Part shown: positions 3,018 to 13,126 of the stretch, in pieces
Layout of the letters: the number at the start of each line of letters is the position of its first letter
How positions within the stretch are numbered: position 1 is the stretch's first letter
The notes under the pieces: model-generated
Databases searched by the model: none
What the model was told of the DNA's origin: nothing
What the model saw: the letters and a program-made list of their open reading frames with translations, nothing else
Translations under genes and position numbers: made by a program
IMG/VR virus record: IMGVR_UViG_2718217868_000002
Coordinates: 1-13,126 of that record
Origin: a virus
Lineage: Duplodnaviria > Heunggongvirae > Uroviricota > Caudoviricetes
Length of the DNA: 13,126 bases
Reading direction: 5' to 3' (one strand)

Positions 3018-3317
3018 TTAACCAGTCTTTTGACCGGAGTGGGGCGACGTTGTTTCGTTTTGCCCAAAGTGTGCGAGAGCGGGCGCAATTTGCCCGGACT
3101 CAGGAGCGATCTGATTGGTCATGAACCATAAAGTGTATTTGGTGAATTGTGGGGTCTGCAGGATGTTCATCATGACATCTGTTGGAGGTGTTGAACGACC
3201 ACTTTCATAGTAACTCAGCGTGCCATACGGAACCCCTGTTAAATCAGCAAGTTGTTGTCTGCTCAAATACTCTGATTTTCGCATTAAGACTATCTTCTCG
3301 CTTATCGTGTTTGACAT
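3018..3317 (-). CDS. C: Immunity repressor C (99 aa, P2 C-like, helix-turn-helix)
   Basis: 99-aa ORF divergent from cox; HTH-like segment LSRQQLADLTGVPYGTLSYYESG. Position (between int and cox) and size match P2 C. Confidence 0.9.
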   Translation of the reverse strand: MSNTISEKIVLMRKSEYLSRQQLADLTGVPYGTLSYYESGRSTPPTDVMMNILQTPQFTKYTLWFMTNQIAPESGQIAPALAHFGQNETTSPHSGQKTG

Positions 3318-3431: not shown

Positions 3432-3707
3432 ATGAGCAAGCAAGTAACACTCATGACTGATGCGATTCCTTATCAGGAGTTCGCAAAACTAATAGGAAAA
3501 TCGACAGGAGCGGTTCGTCGGATGATCGATAAAGGAAAGCTGCCTGTAATTGATATGACCGATCCACAATCAGCTTCAGGTCGTGCAGGTGAATATTGGG
3601 TATACCTTCCGGCATGGAATAACGGACTAAAACTGGCTTATGAAAGCCGCCCTAAAGAGATTCGTGACGGCTGGTTGATGTGGTTAGGTCTCGGTGAACC
3701 ACGTTAA
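3432..3707 (+). CDS. cox: Cox (excisionase / Pc repressor, 91 aa)
   Basis: ATG at 3432 preceded by GGAGGA (3422-3427). 91 aa, first gene of the rightward early operon, as in P2. Confidence 0.9.
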   Translation: MSKQVTLMTDAIPYQEFAKLIGKSTGAVRRMIDKGKLPVIDMTDPQSASGRAGEYWVYLPAWNNGLKLAYESRPKEIRDGWLMWLGLGEPR

Positions 3708-5199: not shown

Positions 5200-5471
5200 G
5201 TATTCGTATTGAAATTGGCGAACGTTATGTCGTTACCAGTGACAGCTTCCAGTTTATTCTCCACGAGAAAAAGAGAGCGGAAAGCGGTAAAAACGCCGGT
5301 CAGGAATGGCTGGCGGTGGTTGGTTATTACCCGAAATTAAGCCAGCTCGTTTCCGGCCTGATGCATCACGATATTCTGACCGGAAGCGCAAAGTCTTTTG
5401 CTGATTTAAACGCGCAGGTTGAGCAACTCAGCAAGCGTTGTTCAGAGGCTTTTGGCTCATATGGCCGTTAA
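5196..5471 (+). CDS. Hypothetical early protein (P2 orf83-like, 91 aa)
   Basis: ATG at 5196 (ATGA overlap with upstream gene), GGAGA RBS. Confidence 0.6.
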   Translation: MSIRIEIGERYVVTSDSFQFILHEKKRAESGKNAGQEWLAVVGYYPKLSQLVSGLMHHDILTGSAKSFADLNAQVEQLSKRCSEAFGSYGR

Positions 5472-7773
5472 AGCCTCCGGGCGTTTTGTCCCTCCGTCAG
5501 CATTTGCCGCAGGCACCGGTAAGACGTTTACCGGTGCTTATGCATGGAACGCGCCACGCGAGGCCGTCGGGCGCGAAAGACCCCTTACACGTGACGAGAT
5601 GCGTCAGGTGCAAGGTGTTTTATCCACGATTAACCGCCTGCCTTACTTTTTGCGTTCGCTGTTTACTTCACGCTATGACTACATCCGGCGCAATAAAAGC
5701 CCGGTGCACGGGTTTTATTTCCTCACATCCACTTTTCAGCGTCGTTTATGGCCGCGCATTGAGCGCGTGAATCAGCGCCATGAAATGAACACCGACGCGT
5801 CGTTACTGTTTCTGGCAGAGCGTGACCACTATGCGCGCCTGCCGGGAATGAATGACAAGGAGCTGAAAAAATTTGCCGCCCGTATCTCATCGCAGCTTTT
5901 CATGATGTATGAGGAACTCTGCGATGCCTGGGTGGATGCCCATGGCGAAAAAGAATCGCTGTTTACGGATGAGGCGCAGGCTCACCTGTATGGTCATGTT
6001 GCTGGCGCTGCACGTGCTTTCAATATTTCCCCGCTCTACTGGAAAAAATACCGTAAAGGACAGATGACCACGAGGCAGGCATATTCTGCCATTGCCCGCC
6101 TGTTTAACGATGAGTGGTGGACTCATCAGCTTAAAGGCCAGCGTATGCGCTGGCATGAGGCGTTACTGATTGCTGTCGGGGAGGTCAATAAAGACCGTTC
6201 TCCTTATGCCAGTAAACATGCCATTCGTGATGTGCGTGCACGCCGCCAGGCAAATCTGGAATTTCTTAAATCGTGTGACCTTGAAAACAGGGAAACCGGC
6301 GAGCGCATCGACCTTATCAGTAAGGTGATGGGCAGTATTTCTAATCCTGAAATTCGCCGGATGGAGCTGATGAACACCATTGCCGGTATTGAGCGTTACG
6401 CCGCAGCAGAGGGTGATGTGGGGATGTTTATCACGCTGACCGCGCCGTCAAAGTATCACCCGACACGTCAGGTCGGAAAAGGCGAAAGTAAAACCGTCCA
6501 GCTAAATCACGGCTGGAACGATGAGGCATTTAATCCAAAGGATGCGCAGCGTTATCTCTGCCATATCTGGAGCCTGATGCGCACGGCATTCAAGGATAAT
6601 GATTTACAGGTCTACGGTTTGCGTGTCGTCGAGCCACACCACGACGGAACGCCGCACTGGCATATGATGCTTTTTTGTAATCCACGCCAGCGTAACCAGA
6701 TTATTGAAATCATGCGTCGCTATGCGCTCAAAGAGGATGGCGACGAAAGAGGAGCCGCGCGAAACCGTTTTCAGGCAAAACACCTTAACCGGGGCGGTGC
6801 TGCGGGATATATCGCGAAATACATCTCAAAAAACATCGACGGCTATGCACTGGATGGTCAGCTCGATAATGATACCGGTAGGCCGCTGAAAGACACAGCT
6901 GCGGCTGTTACCGCATGGGCGTCAACGTGGCGCATTCCGCAATTTAAAACGGTTGGTCTGCCGACAATGGGGGCTTACCGTGAACTACGCAAATTGCCTC
7001 GCGGCGTCAGCATTGCTGATGAGTTTGACGAGCGCGTCGAGGCTGCACGCGCCGCCGCAGACAGTGGTGATTTTGCGTTGTATATCAGCGCGCAGGGTGG
7101 GGCAAATGTCCCGCGCGATTGTCAGACTGTCAGGGTCGCCCGTAGCCCGTCGGATGACGTTAACGAGTATGAGGAAGAAGTCGAGAGAGTGGTCGGCATT
7201 TACGCGCCGCATCTCGGCGCGCGTCATATTCATATCACCAGAACGACGGACTGGCGCATTGTTCCGAAAGTGCCGGTCTTTGAGCCTTTGACTTTAAAAA
7301 GCGGCATCGCCGCGCCTCGGAGTCCTGTCAATAACTGTGGAAAGCCTGCCAGCAGTGATACTTCGTTACCGGCTCCCACACCTTCTGAACATGCCGCAGC
7401 AGTGCTTAATCTGGTAGATGACGGTGTTATCGAATGGAGTGACCCGGAGGTTGTGAGGGCGCTCAGGGATGCATTAAAACACGGCCTGAAAACACCAAAT
7501 CGTCAGCAAAGAAACGGAAGCCCGTTAAAACTACATGAAATAGCACCGTCGGCCAGACTGACCAGGTCGGAACGAATGCAAATCACCCGTATCCGCGTTG
7601 ACCTTGTTCAGAATGGTATCAGGCCTCAGCGATGGGAGCTTGAGGCGTTGGTTCGAGGAGCGAGAGTAAATTATGGTGATATGTCATTCAAATTTCCAAT
7701 TGATGATCGATTTTATGATGATGTTAACTCTTTGAATTTATGGAGTATTGAGTCTCGTGTGAACTTCACATAA
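5461..7773 (+). CDS. A: Replication initiation protein A (rolling-circle initiator, P2 A-like)
   Basis: About 770 aa from ATG 5461 (MAVKASGRFVPP...); the track ORF begins at a TTG at 5419. Large GC-rich gene in the position of P2 A. The last ~35 codons (about 7665-7773) switch abruptly to AT-rich composition. Confidence 0.85.
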   Translation: MAVKASGRFVPPSAFAAGTGKTFTGAYAWNAPREAVGRERPLTRDEMRQVQGVLSTINRLPYFLRSLFTSRYDYIRRNKSPVHGFYFLTSTFQRRLWPRIERVNQRHEMNTDASLLFLAERDHYARLPGMNDKELKKFAARISSQLFMMYEELCDAWVDAHGEKESLFTDEAQAHLYGHVAGAARAFNISPLYWKKYRKGQMTTRQAYSAIARLFNDEWWTHQLKGQRMRWHEALLIAVGEVNKDRSPYASKHAIRDVRARRQANLEFLKSCDLENRETGERIDLISKVMGSISNPEIRRMELMNTIAGIERYAAAEGDVGMFITLTAPSKYHPTRQVGKGESKTVQLNHGWNDEAFNPKDAQRYLCHIWSLMRTAFKDNDLQVYGLRVVEPHHDGTPHWHMMLFCNPRQRNQIIEIMRRYALKEDGDERGAARNRFQAKHLNRGGAAGYIAKYISKNIDGYALDGQLDNDTGRPLKDTAAAVTAWASTWRIPQFKTVGLPTMGAYRELRKLPRGVSIADEFDERVEAARAAADSGDFALYISAQGGANVPRDCQTVRVARSPSDDVNEYEEEVERVVGIYAPHLGARHIHITRTTDWRIVPKVPVFEPLTLKSGIAAPRSPVNNCGKPASSDTSLPAPTPSEHAAAVLNLVDDGVIEWSDPEVVRALRDALKHGLKTPNRQQRNGSPLKLHEIAPSARLTRSERMQITRIRVDLVQNGIRPQRWELEALVRGARVNYGDMSFKFPIDDRFYDDVNSLNLWSIESRVNFT

Positions 7774-7776
7774 TAT
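7748..7776 (+). promoter_or_regulatory. Candidate sigma70 promoter for the cargo operon
   Basis: -35-like TTGAGT (7748-7753), 17-bp spacer, -10-like TAATAT (7771-7776), about 50 nt upstream of the SIR2 start. Weak matches; by-eye only. Confidence 0.3.
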
Positions 7777-7827
7777 GGGGCCGTTGTAGGTGTTTGAATA
7801 ATCAGACTTCAATTCAAAGGGATAATT

Positions 7828-9075
7828 ATGGTTATTTATCAAGGTGGTAAGATAATATCTGAAGATGATTTTTATTCTCATCTTTATTCGTTATGTCAGT
7901 TGGATAATGTAGGGGTTCTTTTAGGCGCGGGAGCATCGGTCGGATGTGGCGGCCAAACTATGAAGCAGGTATGGCAGTTTTTTAAATATGAACATCCTGA
8001 TCTATTGAATTTGTTACTAGAAAAATACTTATTGGTTGACAAAACTGAATCTGAACAAGATATAGTTAATGTTGAGCTTCTAATTGATGAAGTAACTAAA
8101 TTCTTGTCTGTGGCCAAAACAAGACGTAATGAAGACGAACAAAAAGAAATTAGTTTAATATTAAGTGCTTTGTATAAACAAGTAACAAAGGCTGCATTGT
8201 TAACTGGAGAAGAGTTTGGTTGTAAAAATCAAGGGAAGAAAAAACAGTTTAAGTCTCATAAAGAATTAATTTCAAAGTTGATTTCAAATAGGCAGCCGGG
8301 ACAATCGGCTCCGGCACTTTTTACTACCAACTATGATTTGGCATTAGAGTGGGCAGCTGAAGATTTAGGAATTCAGCTATTTAATGGTTTTTCAGGATTG
8401 CATACAAGACAATTTTATCCTCAAAATTTTGATTTGGCATTTAGAAATGTCAATGCAAAAGGGGAGGCTAGATTTGGTCATTATCACGCTTATCTATATA
8501 AATTGCATGGCTCTCTTACATGGTATCAGGATGATTTTTTAATAGTTAATGAGATAAGTGCATCTCAGGCATATGATAATTACATTAAAAATATTATTAA
8601 TGGTGACGGTTTTTACTATGGTCAACATTTAATTTATCCGGGGGCTAATAAATATAGCCATACAATTGGTTTTGTTTACGGTGAAATGTTTAGACGTTTT
8701 GGCGAGTTTTTGTCAAAACCTCAAACCGCTTTGTTTATTAATGGGTTTGGGTTTGGTGATTATCATATAAACAGAATTGTTTTTGGTGCTTTGTTAAATC
8801 CGTCATTTCATGTTGTTATTTATTACCCTGATCTGGAGAATGCTTTAGATAAAGTTAGTAGAGGCGTTGCTTCTGAAGGTGAAAAGGCAATTGATGCTTT
8901 AAAAAATATGCAATTCAATCAAGTGACTATCGTGGGTGGGGGGGCAGATGCTTACTTTGATAGTTTTGTGAAACATCTTCCTTATCCGGTGTTGTTCCCA
9001 AGAGAAAATACTGTTGATGACTTGGTTGAAGCTATTTCTAAATTGTCTAAAGGGGAAGGGAATGTCGCATTTTAA
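7828..9075 (+). CDS. SIR2-family (sirtuin-like / DHS-like NAD-binding) protein, predicted NAD+ hydrolase effector (415 aa)
   Basis: ATG at 7828 with AAGGGA RBS. Glycine-rich loop GAGASVGCGG (aa 33-42, nt 7924-7953). TTNYD motif (aa 166-170, nt 8323-8337). HG(S) motif in KLHGSL (His227, nt 8506-8508). Order and spacing match defence-associated SIR2 domains (ThsA/SIR2_2-like). Gene is about one-third GC against ~55-60% in flanking phage genes (hand count on sample 60-mers). Confidence 0.8.
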   Translation: MVIYQGGKIISEDDFYSHLYSLCQLDNVGVLLGAGASVGCGGQTMKQVWQFFKYEHPDLLNLLLEKYLLVDKTESEQDIVNVELLIDEVTKFLSVAKTRRNEDEQKEISLILSALYKQVTKAALLTGEEFGCKNQGKKKQFKSHKELISKLISNRQPGQSAPALFTTNYDLALEWAAEDLGIQLFNGFSGLHTRQFYPQNFDLAFRNVNAKGEARFGHYHAYLYKLHGSLTWYQDDFLIVNEISASQAYDNYIKNIINGDGFYYGQHLIYPGANKYSHTIGFVYGEMFRRFGEFLSKPQTALFINGFGFGDYHINRIVFGALLNPSFHVVIYYPDLENALDKVSRGVASEGEKAIDALKNMQFNQVTIVGGGADAYFDSFVKHLPYPVLFPRENTVDDLVEAISKLSKGEGNVAF

Positions 9076-10882
9076 ACTATCTGAATTATCTGCTATTGGG
9101 TATGTCGTTGGTCTGGAGGGCGAAAAAATAAGGATAAATCTTCATGAAGGATTGCAAGGTAGGCTCGCCTCTCATAGGGATGGTGTTAGTTCTGTTACTC
9201 AGCCTGGAGATTTGATCGGTTTTGATGCCGGAAATATTCTGGTTGTGGCTCGAGTTACAGATATGGCATTTGTCGAGGCTGATAAAGCACATAAGGCAAA
9301 AATAGGTACATCAGATATAGCAGATATGCCGTTAAGGCAAATAATAGCCTATGCAATAGGTTTTATTAGACGAGATATAGATGGATGTGTGTTTGTTTCG
9401 GAAGACTGGAGGTTACCTGCTCTGGGAGCATCCGCTGTCCCGTTAACATCTGATTTTTTAAATATCGTATATAGTATTGATAAAAATGATCTGGATAAAG
9501 CAATTGAGTTAGAAATAGATTCGAGGACTAAATCAGTTAAAATTTTAGCTAGCATTGATAAATTACTAACCAGGCATATGGCTGTTTTGGGCAGTACTGG
9601 ATATGGTAAATCTAATTTTAATGCTTTACTTACACGCCGCATTTCAGAACAGTACCCTAATGCAAGAATAGTAATTTTTGATATTAATGGCGAGTATTCT
9701 CAGGCTTTTGAAGGTGTTGCTAATGTTAAACATACTATTTTAGGTGAGTTACCAAAAGGAGAGTTTCCAAAACCACCTCTACAGAAAGGAGATATATTTT
9801 CTGAGAATGAACATTACTACTATAGAAAAATACCTTATCAAGCATTGGGATTTGCTGGGTTGATAAAATTACTACGCCCTAGTGATAAGACACAATTACC
9901 TGCATTAAGAAATGCGCTTAATGCTATAAATAGTGTTCATTTTTCCGATGATTCATTCTTTCTTAAGGATGAAGTAGGGGGCGTATTTAATATTTTTGAT
10001 GATTGTAGAGATGAAGGGCAAGAGCTTTTATCTGCGTGGTTGAGTTTCTTAAGAAGAGGGATGCTGTGTAAGGCAAATAAATGGCCGCCGTTTAAAAGTA
10101 TTGCTAACTTGGTTGCGGAGTTTGGTTGCGTGGCGGCGGATTCGCGAAAAGCTGGATCTAGTAAACGAGATGCTTTTAGCTATGGTAATGTTCTGCCATT
10201 GATTAAGATAATTCAACAGTTATCAGAGGATTCTAGATTCAAGTATGTTGTTGATTTAAATGGAGGTGGTGAATTATTAAGTGATGGCAAACATTGGGAA
10301 TTAGCTATGAGACAGGAAGTTGATTATTTCTTTGGTAAAGAAAAGGGAGAGGAGAATGACTGGAATATTCATATTGTTAATTTTAAGCATCTTTCACAAG
10401 ATCATGCTCCAATGCTGTTAAGTGCATTATTAGAAATGTTTGCTGAAGTTCTCTTTCTTAGGGGGCAAAACAAAGCTTTTCCAACCGTGTTACTTCTTGA
10501 AGAGGCGCACCACTATTTAAGAGATCCTTATTCTGAAGTTGATGCACAAATTAAAGCTTATGAAAGACTTGCTAAAGAAGGGCGTAAATTTAAATGTTCA
10601 CTTATTGTGAGCACACAACGACCATCAGAGCTTTCATCAACAGTATTAGCAATGTGTGCAAATTGGTTTTCGTTGCGCCTGACAAATGAGCGTGATTTGC
10701 AGACTTTACGGTATGCGATGGAAAGTGGAAATGAGTTAATGATTCGGCAGATTTCTGGGCTTCCAAGAGGAGATGCAATAGCGTTTGGTGCTGCTTTTAA
10801 TATACCCGTAAGAATTTCAATTCACCCTGCTGTACCCGGTCCGAGATCGTCTGACGCAAGTTATTCTCAAGAATGGCGATAA
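9062..10882 (+). CDS. HerA-like (FtsK/HerA superfamily) P-loop ATPase, 606 aa
   Basis: ATG at 9062 preceded by AGGGGAAGGGA; start lies 14 nt inside the upstream gene (translational coupling). Walker A GSTGYGKS (aa 177-184, nt 9590-9613). Walker B-like VLLLEEAHH (aa 476-484, nt 10487-10513). TQRP motif (aa 518-521, nt 10613-10624), characteristic of HerA/VirB4-type ATPases. N-terminal ~170 aa is consistent with a HAS-barrel. AT-rich like its partner. Confidence 0.8.
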   Translation: MSHFKLSELSAIGYVVGLEGEKIRINLHEGLQGRLASHRDGVSSVTQPGDLIGFDAGNILVVARVTDMAFVEADKAHKAKIGTSDIADMPLRQIIAYAIGFIRRDIDGCVFVSEDWRLPALGASAVPLTSDFLNIVYSIDKNDLDKAIELEIDSRTKSVKILASIDKLLTRHMAVLGSTGYGKSNFNALLTRRISEQYPNARIVIFDINGEYSQAFEGVANVKHTILGELPKGEFPKPPLQKGDIFSENEHYYYRKIPYQALGFAGLIKLLRPSDKTQLPALRNALNAINSVHFSDDSFFLKDEVGGVFNIFDDCRDEGQELLSAWLSFLRRGMLCKANKWPPFKSIANLVAEFGCVAADSRKAGSSKRDAFSYGNVLPLIKIIQQLSEDSRFKYVVDLNGGGELLSDGKHWELAMRQEVDYFFGKEKGEENDWNIHIVNFKHLSQDHAPMLLSALLEMFAEVLFLRGQNKAFPTVLLLEEAHHYLRDPYSEVDAQIKAYERLAKEGRKFKCSLIVSTQRPSELSSTVLAMCANWFSLRLTNERDLQTLRYAMESGNELMIRQISGLPRGDAIAFGAAFNIPVRISIHPAVPGPRSSDASYSQEWR

Positions 10883-11036
10883 TCTTGTGGGAGAATGTAA
10901 TAGGATAACGATAAGTGCATCTATCTGCATTAATTCGAATAAGGTTGAGAGGAGTTCAAAAACAAATTTAGACCGGCATTAGAGTGATTTAGATAGACAT
11001 ATGCAACTGCATTAAAACCGCCCCATGAAGCGGGCG

Positions 11037-11055
11037 GGCGAGGCGGGGAAAGCAC
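11037..11055. other. cos site: 19-nt P2-type cohesive-end sequence GGCGAGGCGGGGAAAGCAC
   Basis: Exact 19-mer matching my recollection of the P2 cohesive end, in the expected prophage position between the right-end accessory genes and Q. Preceded by a GC hairpin, CCGCCC (11018-11023) / GGGCGG (11032-11037). Confidence 0.55.
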
Positions 11056-11196
11056 TGCGCGCTGGCGGTGGTGCTGATTTTATTTTTTCAGCGTCTGAGC
11101 GCGTCGTGATGGCGTTTAGATTGTTAGCCGGGGCGTTGGTGTGTCTGCGGGCTGTTTTGTGCGGTGGTGAGCGTGTGAGGGCGTGATGGCGGGGTG

Positions 11197-11220
11197 TAAA
11201 AAAGCCGCCCGCAGGCGGCG
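11197..11220 (-). terminator. Rho-independent terminator downstream of Q
   Basis: GCCGCC (11204-11209) / GGCGGC (11214-11219) stem with CGCA loop, immediately followed on the minus strand by a T-run (plus-strand A-run 11198-11203), 4 nt after the Q stop codon. Confidence 0.65.
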
Positions 11221-11224
11221 ATGT

Positions 11225-12259
11225 TCAGCCGTTGTCAGTGTCCAGTGAGTAGTTTTTAAAGCGGATGACCTCCTGACCGAGCCAGCCGTTTATCTCGCGG
11301 ATCCTGTCCTGTAACGGGATAAGCTCATTGCGGACAAAGACCTTTGCCACTTTCTCAATATCACCCAGCGACCCGACGTTCTCCGGCTTGCCGCCCATCA
11401 ACTGAAAGGGGATGCGGTGCGCGTCCAGCAGGTCAGCGGCGCTGGCTTTTTTGATATTAAAAAAATCGTCCTTCGTTGCCACTTCACTGAGCGGGATAAT
11501 TTTAATGCCGTCAGCTTTCCCCTGCGGGGCATAGAGAAACAGGTTTTTAAAGTTGTTGCGGCCTTTCGACTTCACCATGTTTTCGCGAAGCATTTCGATA
11601 TCGTTGCGATCCTGCACGGCATCGGTAACGTACATGATGTATCCGGCATGAGCGCCGTTTTCGTAATACTTGCGGCGGAACAGCGTGGCTGACTCATTCA
11701 GCCAGGCAGAGTTAAGGGCGCTGAGATATTCCGGCAGGCCGTACAGCTCCTGATTAATATCCGGCTCCAGCAGATGAAACACGGAGCCAGGTGCGAAGGC
11801 TGTCGGCTCGTTGAAGGAAGGCACCCACCAGTAAACATCCTCCTCCACGCCACGGCGGGTATATTTTGCCGGTGAGGTTTCCAGTCTGATGACCTTGCCG
11901 GTGGTGCTGTAACGCTTTTCCAGAAACGCATTGCCGAACACCAGAAAATCCAGCACAAAGCGGCTGAAATCCTGCTGGGAAAGCCACGGATGCGGGATAA
12001 ATGTCGAGGCCAGAATATTGCGTTTGACGTAAATCGGGGAGCTGTGATGCACGGCAGCACGCAGGCTTTTTGCCAGACCGGTAAAGCTGATTGGTGGCTC
12101 ATACCATCTGCCGTTACTGATGCATTCGACGTAATCCAGAATGTCACGGCGGTCGAGTACCGGCACCGGCTCACCAAAGGTGAATGCCTCCATTTTCGGG
12201 GCGCTGGCGGTCATTTTTTTTGCCGCAGGTTGCGGTGTTTTCCCTTTTTTCTTGCTCAT
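11225..12259 (-). CDS. Q: Portal protein Q (344 aa, P2 Q-like)
   Basis: ATG at 12257-12259 (minus), TGA at 11225-11227. Size and sequence recognised as the P2 capsid portal protein; leftward-transcribed gene adjacent to cos, as in P2. Confidence 0.9.
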   Translation of the reverse strand: MSKKKGKTPQPAAKKMTASAPKMEAFTFGEPVPVLDRRDILDYVECISNGRWYEPPISFTGLAKSLRAAVHHSSPIYVKRNILASTFIPHPWLSQQDFSRFVLDFLVFGNAFLEKRYSTTGKVIRLETSPAKYTRRGVEEDVYWWVPSFNEPTAFAPGSVFHLLEPDINQELYGLPEYLSALNSAWLNESATLFRRKYYENGAHAGYIMYVTDAVQDRNDIEMLRENMVKSKGRNNFKNLFLYAPQGKADGIKIIPLSEVATKDDFFNIKKASAADLLDAHRIPFQLMGGKPENVGSLGDIEKVAKVFVRNELIPLQDRIREINGWLGQEVIRFKNYSLDTDNG

Positions 12260-12528
12260 CAGTAAAACTCCAGAATGGTGGATGTCAGCGGGGTGCTGAT
12301 ACCGGCGGTGAGTGGCTCATTTAACAGGGCGTGCATGGTCGCCCAGGCGAGGTCGGCGTGGCTGGCTTCCTCGCTGCGGCTGGCCTCATAGGTGGCGCTG
12401 CGCCCGCTGCTGGTCATGGTCTTGCGGATAGCCATAAACGAGCTGGTGATGTCGGTGGCGCTGACGTCGTATTCCAGACAGCCACGGCGGATAACGTCTT
12501 TTGCCTTGAGCACCATTGCGGTTTTCAT
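12259..12528 (-). pseudogene. P: Truncated terminase large subunit P (C-terminal ~90 codons only)
   Basis: Minus-strand frame that ends with a TGATG stop/start overlap onto Q, the P-Q operon arrangement. The frame is closed by a stop about 45 codons further upstream and the sequence beyond ~12540 instead reads as coding on the plus strand. An intact P would be about 590 aa. Upstream boundary approximate. Confidence 0.5.
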
Positions 12529-12540
12529 TTCCGGTGTGTG

Positions 12541-12624
12541 CCTCCTCTTGAAAACCTGACCCTGCGCCAGCGTATTACCGATAAATACCTGGCAAATCTG
12601 GTCACCTCGGTTAACAGCAATTAA
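12541..12624 (+). pseudogene. FI: 3' remnant of tail sheath gene FI (last ~28 codons)
   Basis: Plus-strand frame with host-typical codons (CTG, CGC, CAG, ACC) ending at TAA 12622-12624, directly upstream of the FII RBS AAGGAG (12624-12629). Assignment is by position relative to FII. Left boundary uncertain. Confidence 0.35.
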
Positions 12625-12636
12625 GGAGCCTGACCG

Positions 12637-12852
12637 ATGGCAATGCCGCGCAAACTCAAGTTAATGAACGTCTTTCTGAACGGCTACAGCTATCAGGGCG
12701 TTGCAAAGTCCGTCACGCTGCCAAAACTGACCCGTAAGCTCGAAAACTATCGCGGTGCGGGGATGAACGGCAGCGCACCGGTAGACCTCGGCCTTGATGA
12801 CGATGCTCTGTCAATGGAGTGGTCGCTCGGTGGATTCCCGGATTCGGTTATA
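12637..12852 (+). pseudogene. FII: Truncated tail tube gene FII (N-terminal 72 codons)
   Basis: ATG at 12637 after AAGGAG. N-terminus MAMPRKLKLMNVFLNGYSYQGVAKSVTLPKL... recognised as P2 FII. The reading frame breaks after ...GGFPDSVI (about 12852) and then runs to an early stop at 12898-12900. Confidence 0.6.
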
Positions 12853-12853
12853 T

Positions 12854-13126
12854 GCCACGAAAGCACAGGCCATGCGCGCCGCTCAGGCGAAGTGGGATAA
12901 ACTGCAACGGGGCGTTGCGGAGTTCTCCATCAGCCTGGCTACTGGTCGGGCAGATATTTACACGGAAACACCGGTCAAAGTGTCTGGCTTTAAGCGCGTC
13001 ATAGACGAGCAGGACTGGACAATCACTAAGGTGACACACTTTCTGAATAATAGTGGCTTCACGACGTCCTTAGAACTTGAGGTAAGGCTTTCTGATGTGG
13101 AGTACGAAACAGAAGATGATGAGTGA
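12854..13126 (+). pseudogene. D: C-terminal fragment of tail protein D (~90 codons), fused out of frame to FII'
   Basis: Second frame reads ...ATKAQAMRAAQAKWDKLQRGVAEFSISLATGRADIYTETPVKV...SDVEYETEDDE with stop at 13124-13126. Recognised as the C-terminus of P2 gpD (the K-12 yegZ-like remnant). The N-terminal part of the track ORF (12794..) is an out-of-frame read of FII. Confidence 0.55.

Follow-up and report, generated by a model that had tools for sequence, protein, structure and literature searches.

Two AT-rich genes sit between the replication gene and the cos site of a P2-like prophage, and the locus raises the question of what this pair does there and whether it belongs to a system that has already been described. 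The window, by which we mean the whole 13,126-nucleotide stretch of viral DNA analysed (IMG/VR record IMGVR_UViG_2718217868_000002), is 100% identical to the chromosome of E. coli H6. We conclude that the pair very probably constitutes an anti-phage defence system of the SIR2-HerA (‘Nezha’) type, a lysogenic-conversion module lodged in the P2-like gpA-cos-gpQ hotspot. The features discussed below are as follows, in window coordinates.

5461–7773, + strand: P2-type replication gene A (gpA), left anchor of the hotspot (Phage_GPA, E 2e-124)
7676–11007, no strand: variable hotspot module of 3,332 bp and 36.3% GC, replacing P2 orf91-tin-old between gene A and cos
7710–7776, + strand: upstream block, possibly a native promoter region, picked out by alignment (TTAAC..TTGAAT..ATGG ... 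ATAAT)
7828–9075, + strand: SIR2 NADase gene, ATG start, 415 aa, protein identical to WP_000237502.1
9062–10882, + strand: HerA ATPase gene, ATG at 9062, 606 aa, with Walker A K183, Walker B E480/E481 and TQRP at 518–521
9512–9514, + strand: HerA codon GAA for E151, a private substitution of an otherwise invariant glycine
11037–11055, no strand: P2 cos cohesive-end sequence GGCGAGGCGGGGAAAGCAC (P2 match), right edge of the hotspot
11225–12259, − strand: portal gene Q, right anchor of the hotspot (P2 homology)

An overlapping gene pair in the gpA-cos-gpQ hotspot

ORF analysis places both genes on the + strand with a 14-nt overlap (9062–9075), confirming the co-directional pair of 415 and 606 aa reported in the original prediction and compatible with the translational coupling suggested there. 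In a mechanical ORF list the HerA frame opens at an upstream TTG (9014) rather than at the ATG at 9062, which has GGGGAAGGG ahead of it; the RefSeq annotation holds the same two CDS. The two genes have a GC content of 36.5%, compared with 53.2% in the P2-homologous part of gpA and 55.4% on the cos-Q side, so that they are indeed richer in AT than their flanks. The proposal that the pair arrived as a separately acquired module is supported by the replacement of the P2 orf91-tin-old region.

Homology to phage P2 ends at 7675 and restarts at 11008, leaving the last ~32 codons of gpA (7676–7773) without a P2 counterpart. The cargo thus delimited lies between gene A and portal gene Q and adjoins cos, which is the position of the P2-like prophage diversity hotspot defined by Rousset et al. 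2022 (PMC9122126). In P2 itself, the same A-cos position is occupied by old and tin, which have the same role as that proposed for the cassette, namely prophage-borne exclusion of other phages, but their proteins are unrelated to SIR2-HerA, and they lie on the opposite strand with their own mapped transcript starts.

The prophage occupies a site between yegR and yegQ on the E. coli chromosome and has lost ~16 kb or more of structural and morphogenesis genes, deletions that leave the SIR2-HerA cassette fully untouched. Searches of isolated phage genomes and plasmids gave no match to the cassette DNA, even at blastn sensitivity, and within these collections the cassette is thus confined to chromosomal prophages. 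At the protein level, the phage and plasmid collections returned matches of only 23–24% identity, to a terminase and an unannotated contig.

Family assignment and the closest characterised relatives

Both proteins match profiles of the SIR2-HerA family along essentially their full length. The PADLOC SIR2 model (PDLC02186) aligns with residues 1–412 across model positions 3–408 of 412 (E 3e-188), and the PADLOC HerA model (PDLC02185) aligns with residues 7–606 across positions 2–580 of 585 (E 1e-270). The Pfam matches, SIR2_2 (E 2e-9) and DUF87 (E 1e-21), both exceed their gathering thresholds, and all of these matches lie far beyond chance. The profile searches called for by the original prediction were thus positive for both genes, and every motif that it had named was found at the residue given: in SIR2, GAGAS at 33–37, TTNYD at 166–170 (N168) and LHGS at 226–229 (H227); in HerA, GSTGYGKS at 177–184, LLLEEAHH at 477–484 and TQRP.

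The system of E. coli NCTC11129 (EcSIR2-HerA) has reportedly undergone defence assays and cryo-EM structure determination, in work ascribed to Gao et al. 2020, Tang et al. 2023 and Shen et al. 2023 (PDB IDs: 8J4U, 8SU9, 8SUB, 8SUW, 8SXX, 8UAE and 8UAF). These entries match the window proteins at E 6e-231 and E 0, and the matched chains are exactly the NCTC11129 proteins. The two systems share their gene order, the 14-nt overlap, the gpA-cos-gpQ hotspot and the yegR/yegQ integration site. SIR2 is 415 aa in both, and it aligns with 8J4U chain A without gaps from 1–415 to 1–415 at 81.0% identity, with N168, H227 and the NAD loop (GAGAS) identical; judged from this alignment, which includes the C-terminal extension through which dodecamer contacts are made, a similar assembly may form here. 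HerA is 606 aa in the window and 610 aa in NCTC11129 and shares ~77% identity with 8J4U chain M, rising to ~90% over residues 1–100 (the N-terminal β-barrel region), and the ATPase motifs are again identical. With full-length PADLOC matches, this degree of identity to a tested system and N168 and H227 retained, the reading of the pair as an abortive-infection cassette of a SIR2 NADase and a HerA-type ATPase is well supported.

The two modules have nevertheless diverged far more than the prophages that carry them, with 73.6% nucleotide identity and saturated synonymous divergence compared with a surrounding backbone that is ~98% identical. The differences are concentrated in SIR2 residues 1–120 and 330–415 and HerA residues 200–450. 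The left junction with gpA also differs, and HerA residue 151 is glycine in NCTC11129 and glutamate in the window.

The original prediction left undecided whether the pair had already been described or was a divergent form; it proves to be an allele, itself uncharacterised, of a system that has been described and that appears explicitly in a published catalogue of the P2 hotspot. Tables S5A/S5B of Rousset et al. 2022 list, for the same locus class, system 14 as ‘SIR2 | DUF87 = SIR2 + HerA’ (Gao 2020) with 188 occurrences (PMC9122126). Because these tables include the exact SIR2 protein (WP_000237502), the window system counts as already known, although there SIR2 is paired with HerA WP_000017834, the G151 form, and the sequence given to represent system 14 is the allele that is roughly 84% identical. 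The E151 HerA of H5/H6 (WP_073464489) is not among the matches listed in those tables. The cassette is, then, a textbook prophage-borne defence cassette in the cos-proximal hotspot of P2 that has already been catalogued. With structures, biochemistry and phage counter-defences in hand for the SIR2-HerA family, the consequence beyond correct annotation is small.

Annotation itself is affected by where thresholds are set. Both proteins miss the NCBIfam equivalog cut-offs (499.2 against 500 bits for SIR2_antiphage NF042942, and 697.3 against 800 for HerA_antiphage NF042943), even though these models are their best hits by far, and this accounts for the generic naming of both genes in RefSeq. In NCTC11129, whose system is experimentally validated, HerA too is named only ‘ATP-binding protein’, which indicates that the cut-off is stricter than the family. 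Automated surveys that rely on names will therefore miss the allele.

Allelic variation and the HerA G151E substitution

Across the five E. coli alleles compared, N168, H227, Walker A, Walker B and TQRP are identical. The alleles include three deeply diverged groups (dN 0.10–0.17, dS ~1.6 to saturated) that share the P2 hotspot and differ most in the HerA helical insertion (~200–450) and the SIR2 termini. With ω of ~0.06–0.08 across these groups, both genes are under purifying selection; for the close pair formed by the window and strain 410, ω is 0.10–0.15. In a sliding-window dN/dS analysis ω stayed at or below 0.25, with dS saturated, giving no evidence of diversifying selection.

The family-invariant residues are not all intact in this copy. 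HerA position 151 is glutamate in the window, whereas all 111 full-length homologues, which reach down to 40% identity, have glycine, a conservation equal to that of the Walker A Gly and Lys. The remaining four E. coli alleles compared also have glycine here, and the position aligns with glycine in 9C1M and in the HerA of S. aureus (8WIV). In an AlphaFold2 model of HerA (pLDDT 85), which is predicted to comprise an N-terminal β-barrel, an ATPase core and a helical insertion, residue 151 falls in a putative β-strand (147–153) some 25–30 residues ahead of the P-loop. The exact E151 protein was found on 4 contigs only, compared with 653 for the exact SIR2 protein, which is also present in P2-like prophages that look intact.

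Since an invariant glycine has been replaced and the host prophage is degraded, this SIR2-HerA copy may be impaired. The strongest form of this argument is that the pair belongs to the same family but is a decaying relic, in which G151E breaks the ATPase fold or the hexamer, SIR2 is never activated and the remnant has yet to be purged. The invariance of G151, its predicted position before the P-loop, the rarity of the E151 protein and the loss of more than 16 kb of morphogenesis genes all speak for it. On the other side, neither ORF is interrupted and every catalytic motif is in place (K183, E480/E481 and Q519/R520, which are invariant across the 111 homologues, are present), a single missense change is perhaps tolerated, the deletions bypass the cassette entirely, and cryptic prophages often keep defence genes. 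We regard a relic as a serious possibility, though the less probable state of this copy.

More speculatively, the three allele groups might be specificity variants, each sensing or resisting different phages or phage inhibitors, and G151E might separately be a variant that has lost function or regulation and reflects selection against the cost of the system; we put this forward as a doubtful but useful suggestion, since either reading, if true, would provide a natural allelic series with which to map the Nezha trigger. Together, the three alleles and the natural G151E variant are material for work on Nezha trigger specificity and HerA function.

Proposed mechanism and competing functions

The mechanism that we propose for the SIR2-HerA pair is carried over from characterised homologues, in part through the summaries that later papers give of earlier studies. 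By analogy, SIR2 would form a dodecameric ring and join a HerA hexamer in a 12:6 complex, the assembly of which would turn on the SIR2 NADase through N168 and H227, with physiological ATP on HerA holding the complex quiet. Upon infection the complex would cleave NAD+ to ADP-ribose and nicotinamide, and the infected cell would no longer support phage replication. For the window pair, we infer complex formation, NAD+ depletion and the choice of phages blocked.

EcSir2-HerA protects against lambda, is activated by assembly and is inhibited by ATP (PMC11514289). The Nezha system of classical-biotype V. cholerae, with its SIR2 active site likewise numbered N168/H227 by alignment to E. coli SIR2, depletes NAD+ and requires HerA, but its setting is a 25-kb defence island of the chromosome rather than a prophage (PMC11559045); Vibrionaceae HerA relatives are ~57–62% identical to that of the window. 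The SIR2-HerA systems of Paenibacillus sp. 453MF and S. aureus follow the same two-gene logic, with HerA-dependent NADase activation and ATP inhibition (PMC11472057, PMC11514289). They differ from the Ec type in stoichiometry and interfaces, with a tetradecamer and a dimeric SaSir2 without the C-terminal helix (PMC11472057, PMC11514289), and they are very distant, EcSIR2 and EcHerA sharing 28% and 23% identity with the Paenibacillus proteins (PMC11472057).

Four enzymatic activities have been reported for SIR2-HerA (PMC11472057), and besides hydrolysing NAD+ the characterised complexes show nuclease and helicase activity in vitro. Defence could then proceed chiefly through DNA unwinding and cleavage rather than NAD+ depletion, in keeping with reports that the complexes of Paenibacillus and E. 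coli act as nucleases, helicases and ATPases (PMC11472057 and the summary in PMC11559045). We consider this unlikely, as NADase active-site point mutations alone abolish immunity in homologous systems, according to the summary in PMC11559045, and the phage NAD+-regeneration system NrsAB restores plaques on a Nezha-carrying host (PMC11559045).

A role for the pair in the phage life cycle, for instance with HerA translocating DNA during replication or packaging under the control of SIR2, was rejected as highly improbable. HerA/FtsK ATPases are distantly related to packaging ATPases, and one weak tblastn match (24%) is to a Blautia phage terminase, but the cassette is absent from P2 and from most P2-like phages, which have unrelated cargo in its place, no phage record in the collection searched carries it, its composition is foreign, and its nearest homologues are tested defence systems. 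Least probable of all is membership in another SIR2- or HerA-based system (Thoeris ThsA, DSR1/2, SPARSA/pAgo-SIR2 or DUF4297-HerA), rejected because the weak secondary PADLOC matches to Aga_SIR2 (E 2e-16) and other HerA models fall more than 100 orders of magnitude short of the full-length matches to the paired SIR2 and HerA models and because the 3.3 kb module contains no gene for a SLOG, Argonaute, DUF4297 or TIR partner.

The SIR2-HerA defence cassette is presumably expressed in the lysogen. A consensus scan for promoters and terminators over 7500–11300 found no + strand σ70 promoter above threshold upstream of SIR2, and promoter-like sites in this interval were no commoner than in shuffled sequences (12 versus 11.6); no promoter is claimed at this position. 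By eye, a weak candidate can be made out (TTGAGT at 7748–7753, a 17-nt spacer and TAATAT at 7771–7776), matching 8 of 12 consensus positions. The upstream block at 7710–7776, which overlaps the 3′ end of gpA, is partly conserved among three diverged E. coli alleles.

A SIR2–HerA gene pair of the Nezha type

The cassette, a SIR2 gene followed by a HerA gene (7828–10882), comprises two co-directional ORFs whose positions are exactly those of the original prediction. It lies in a P2-like prophage with the following features.

Features of the window (coordinates, strand where assigned, description)
1–900, − strand: yegS, host gene flanking the prophage
1306–1623: yegR, host gene flanking the prophage
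1889–2902, − strand: int, P2-like prophage
3018–3317, − strand: C, P2-like prophage
3432–3707: cox, P2-like prophage
Between cox and gene A: B, then four small ORFs, P2-like prophage
5461–7773: gene A (gpA), P2-like prophage, left of the cassette
7828–9075, + strand: SIR2 gene, ATG start, 415 aa
9062–10882, + strand: HerA gene, ATG start, 606 aa, matching the RefSeq annotation
11037–11055: cos, right of the cassette
11225–12259, − strand: portal gene Q
12259–12543, − strand: remnant of terminase gene P
12637–12852: fragment of tail-tube gene FII
12848–13126: fragment of gene D

The HerA start codon, ATG 9062, has GGGGAAGGG just upstream, while the mechanical ORF opens instead at TTG 9014. With the ATG start, HerA overlaps the SIR2 gene by 14 nt. 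The motif residues named earlier were all found in place: GAGAS (33–37), TTNYD (166–170, with Asn168) and LHGS (226–229, with His227) in SIR2, and GSTGYGKS (177–184, with Lys183), LLLEEAHH (477–484) and TQRP (518–521) in HerA.

The pair had been read as a SIR2–HerA defence system, with profile-HMM searches proposed as a check, and this interpretation was right. Significant matches were obtained in Pfam (SIR2_2, E = 2e-9; DUF87/HerA central domain, E = 1e-21; both above gathering thresholds) and, over the full length of each protein, with the PADLOC defence models PDLC02186 (SIR2, E = 3e-188) and PDLC02185 (HerA, E = 1e-270). In the PDB, both proteins (SIR2, E = 6e-231; HerA, E = 0) matched the E. 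coli SIR2–HerA complex (8J4U, 8SU9, 8SUB, 8SUW, 8SXX, 8UAE and 8UAF), whose chains have exactly the sequences of the E. coli NCTC11129 proteins; it is the system of this strain that was assayed against phage lambda (PMC11514289). The window SIR2 is 81.0% identical to its NCTC11129 counterpart across all 415 residues without gaps, and the HerA proteins are ∼77% identical. The cassette thus belongs to an already described and catalogued system, Nezha, and is closely allelic to the member whose structure has been solved. The RefSeq names are only generic (‘SIR2 family protein’ and ‘ATP-binding protein’) because the NCBIfam scores fall below the equivalog cut-offs, just under for SIR2_antiphage (499.2 against 500 bits) and further for HerA_antiphage (697 against 800).

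The mechanism of the window allele is inferred from its homologues, by analogy with which a SIR2 dodecamer and a HerA hexamer would form a 12:6 assembly (PMC11514289, PMC11472057, PMC11559045). Assembly would switch on the NADase, which would be inhibited by ATP at sub-physiological concentration (PMC11514289), and the complex may additionally act as an ATPase, helicase and nuclease (PMC11472057). Defence is lost in SIR2 active-site mutants of homologous systems, and the active-site residues in the V. cholerae study are N168 and H227 (PMC11559045), the same numbers as in the window SIR2.

An imported module at the gpA–cos–gpQ hotspot

The window is 100% identical to the E. coli H6 chromosome (NZ_CP010170.1, 1939991–1953116). 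Homology to phage P2 (97.7%) runs up to 7675 and picks up again at 11008, so a 3,332-bp module (7676–11007) stands in place of P2 orf91-tin-old. The proposal of a separately acquired, AT-rich module was borne out: the gene pair has 36.5% GC, against 53.2% in the P2-homologous part of gpA to the left and 55.4% on the cos–Q side. Because P2 homology stops at 7675, the last ∼32 codons of gene A (7676–7773) derive from the imported, AT-rich DNA. Each allele group has its own left junction (7675 in the window, 7449 and 7482 in the others), and the annotation of NCTC11129 treats gpA as a truncated pseudogene.

The module occupies the gpA–cos–gpQ hotspot that Rousset et al. 2022 reported (PMC9122126). 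There, system 14 of Table S5B, ‘SIR2 | DUF87’, has 188 occurrences and is annotated ‘SIR2 + HerA (Gao et al., 2020)’, and entries of Table S5A include the window's exact SIR2, WP_000237502, paired with the HerA WP_000017834. The NCTC11129 system also occupies this hotspot, in a P2-like prophage that shares the window's yegR/yegQ site, where the strain H6 annotation additionally places ogrK and gene D remnants. Phage record ON470606 (vB_EcoM-720R8) appears to carry host flank, since its match starts at window base 1 and it lists a ‘lipid kinase’.

A sigma-70 scan of the + strand upstream of the cassette gave no site above threshold. A block at 7710–7776 (TTAAC..TTGAAT..ATGG...ATAAT), which overlaps the gpA end in the window, lies ∼55–120 nt before the SIR2 ATG. 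Its partial conservation in three alleles, though their synonymous sites are saturated, suggests a candidate regulatory element moving with the cassette, and plausibly holding the native promoter. The − strand has a GC-rich hairpin with a trailing T-run at two positions: 11018–11037 abuts cos, and 11204–11219 lies just downstream of gene Q, where the P2 terminator tQ is annotated.

Distribution and divergence of the alleles

We found the cassette in 46 of 5,426 complete E. coli genomes, as one chromosomal copy in each, and it was absent from the isolated-phage and plasmid records searched. These 46 genomes form three allele groups: the window type (15 genomes, 97–100% nucleotide identity), a second group at ∼77.5% identity to the window, and the NCTC11129 group at ∼73.6%. 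The second-group representative, Combat13F7, likewise has it in the hotspot of a P2-like prophage, though this one is at another chromosomal site, adjoining pflA. Full-length HerA homologues (57–84% identity), many named ‘anti-phage-associated helicase HerA’, occur in Klebsiella, Enterobacter, Yersinia, Serratia, Vibrio, Shewanella and Aeromonas.

Comparisons across allele groups yielded a dN of 0.10–0.17 and a dS from ∼1.6 to saturated, for an omega of ∼0.06–0.08; for the close pair of the window and strain 410 omega is 0.10–0.15, and no window of a sliding 60-codon scan exceeded 0.25. These low values indicate that purifying selection keeps both genes. Divergence peaks in SIR2 residues 1–120 and 330–415 and in HerA residues 200–450, which the AlphaFold2 model places in a partly helical insertion between the Walker A and Walker B motifs. 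The alleles represent old lineages that were swapped into a near-identical P2 backbone rather than diverging in place, and the existence of three such deeply diverged alleles at one hotspot is noteworthy.

Prophage decay and HerA residue 151

The window prophage is defective. Strains 2013C-3264 and 317 encode the window's SIR2 protein in P2-like prophages that are apparently complete. Relative to the intact 2013C-3264 prophage, the one in the window lacks a 16.2-kb stretch that begins inside P and stops just short of FII, and has another deletion running from FII into D. Strain 410 (97% allele) has different prophage deletions, and thus decay was independent in two lineages, with the cassette kept in both.

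Within this decaying prophage, a private change in HerA is noteworthy: residue 151 is Glu (GAA, 9512–9514), whereas 111 of 111 full-length homologues, with identities as low as 40%, have Gly there, an invariance equal to that of the Walker A Gly and Lys. Gly is likewise present in all four other E. coli alleles compared, and the position aligns with a Gly of S. aureus HerA and of another solved HerA. In the AlphaFold2 model (pLDDT 85), residue 151 sits in strand 147–153, ∼25–30 residues ahead of the P-loop. G151E may be an inactivating change. The exact E151 HerA was found in only four contigs, H5 and H6 among them, and the exact SIR2 protein in 653.
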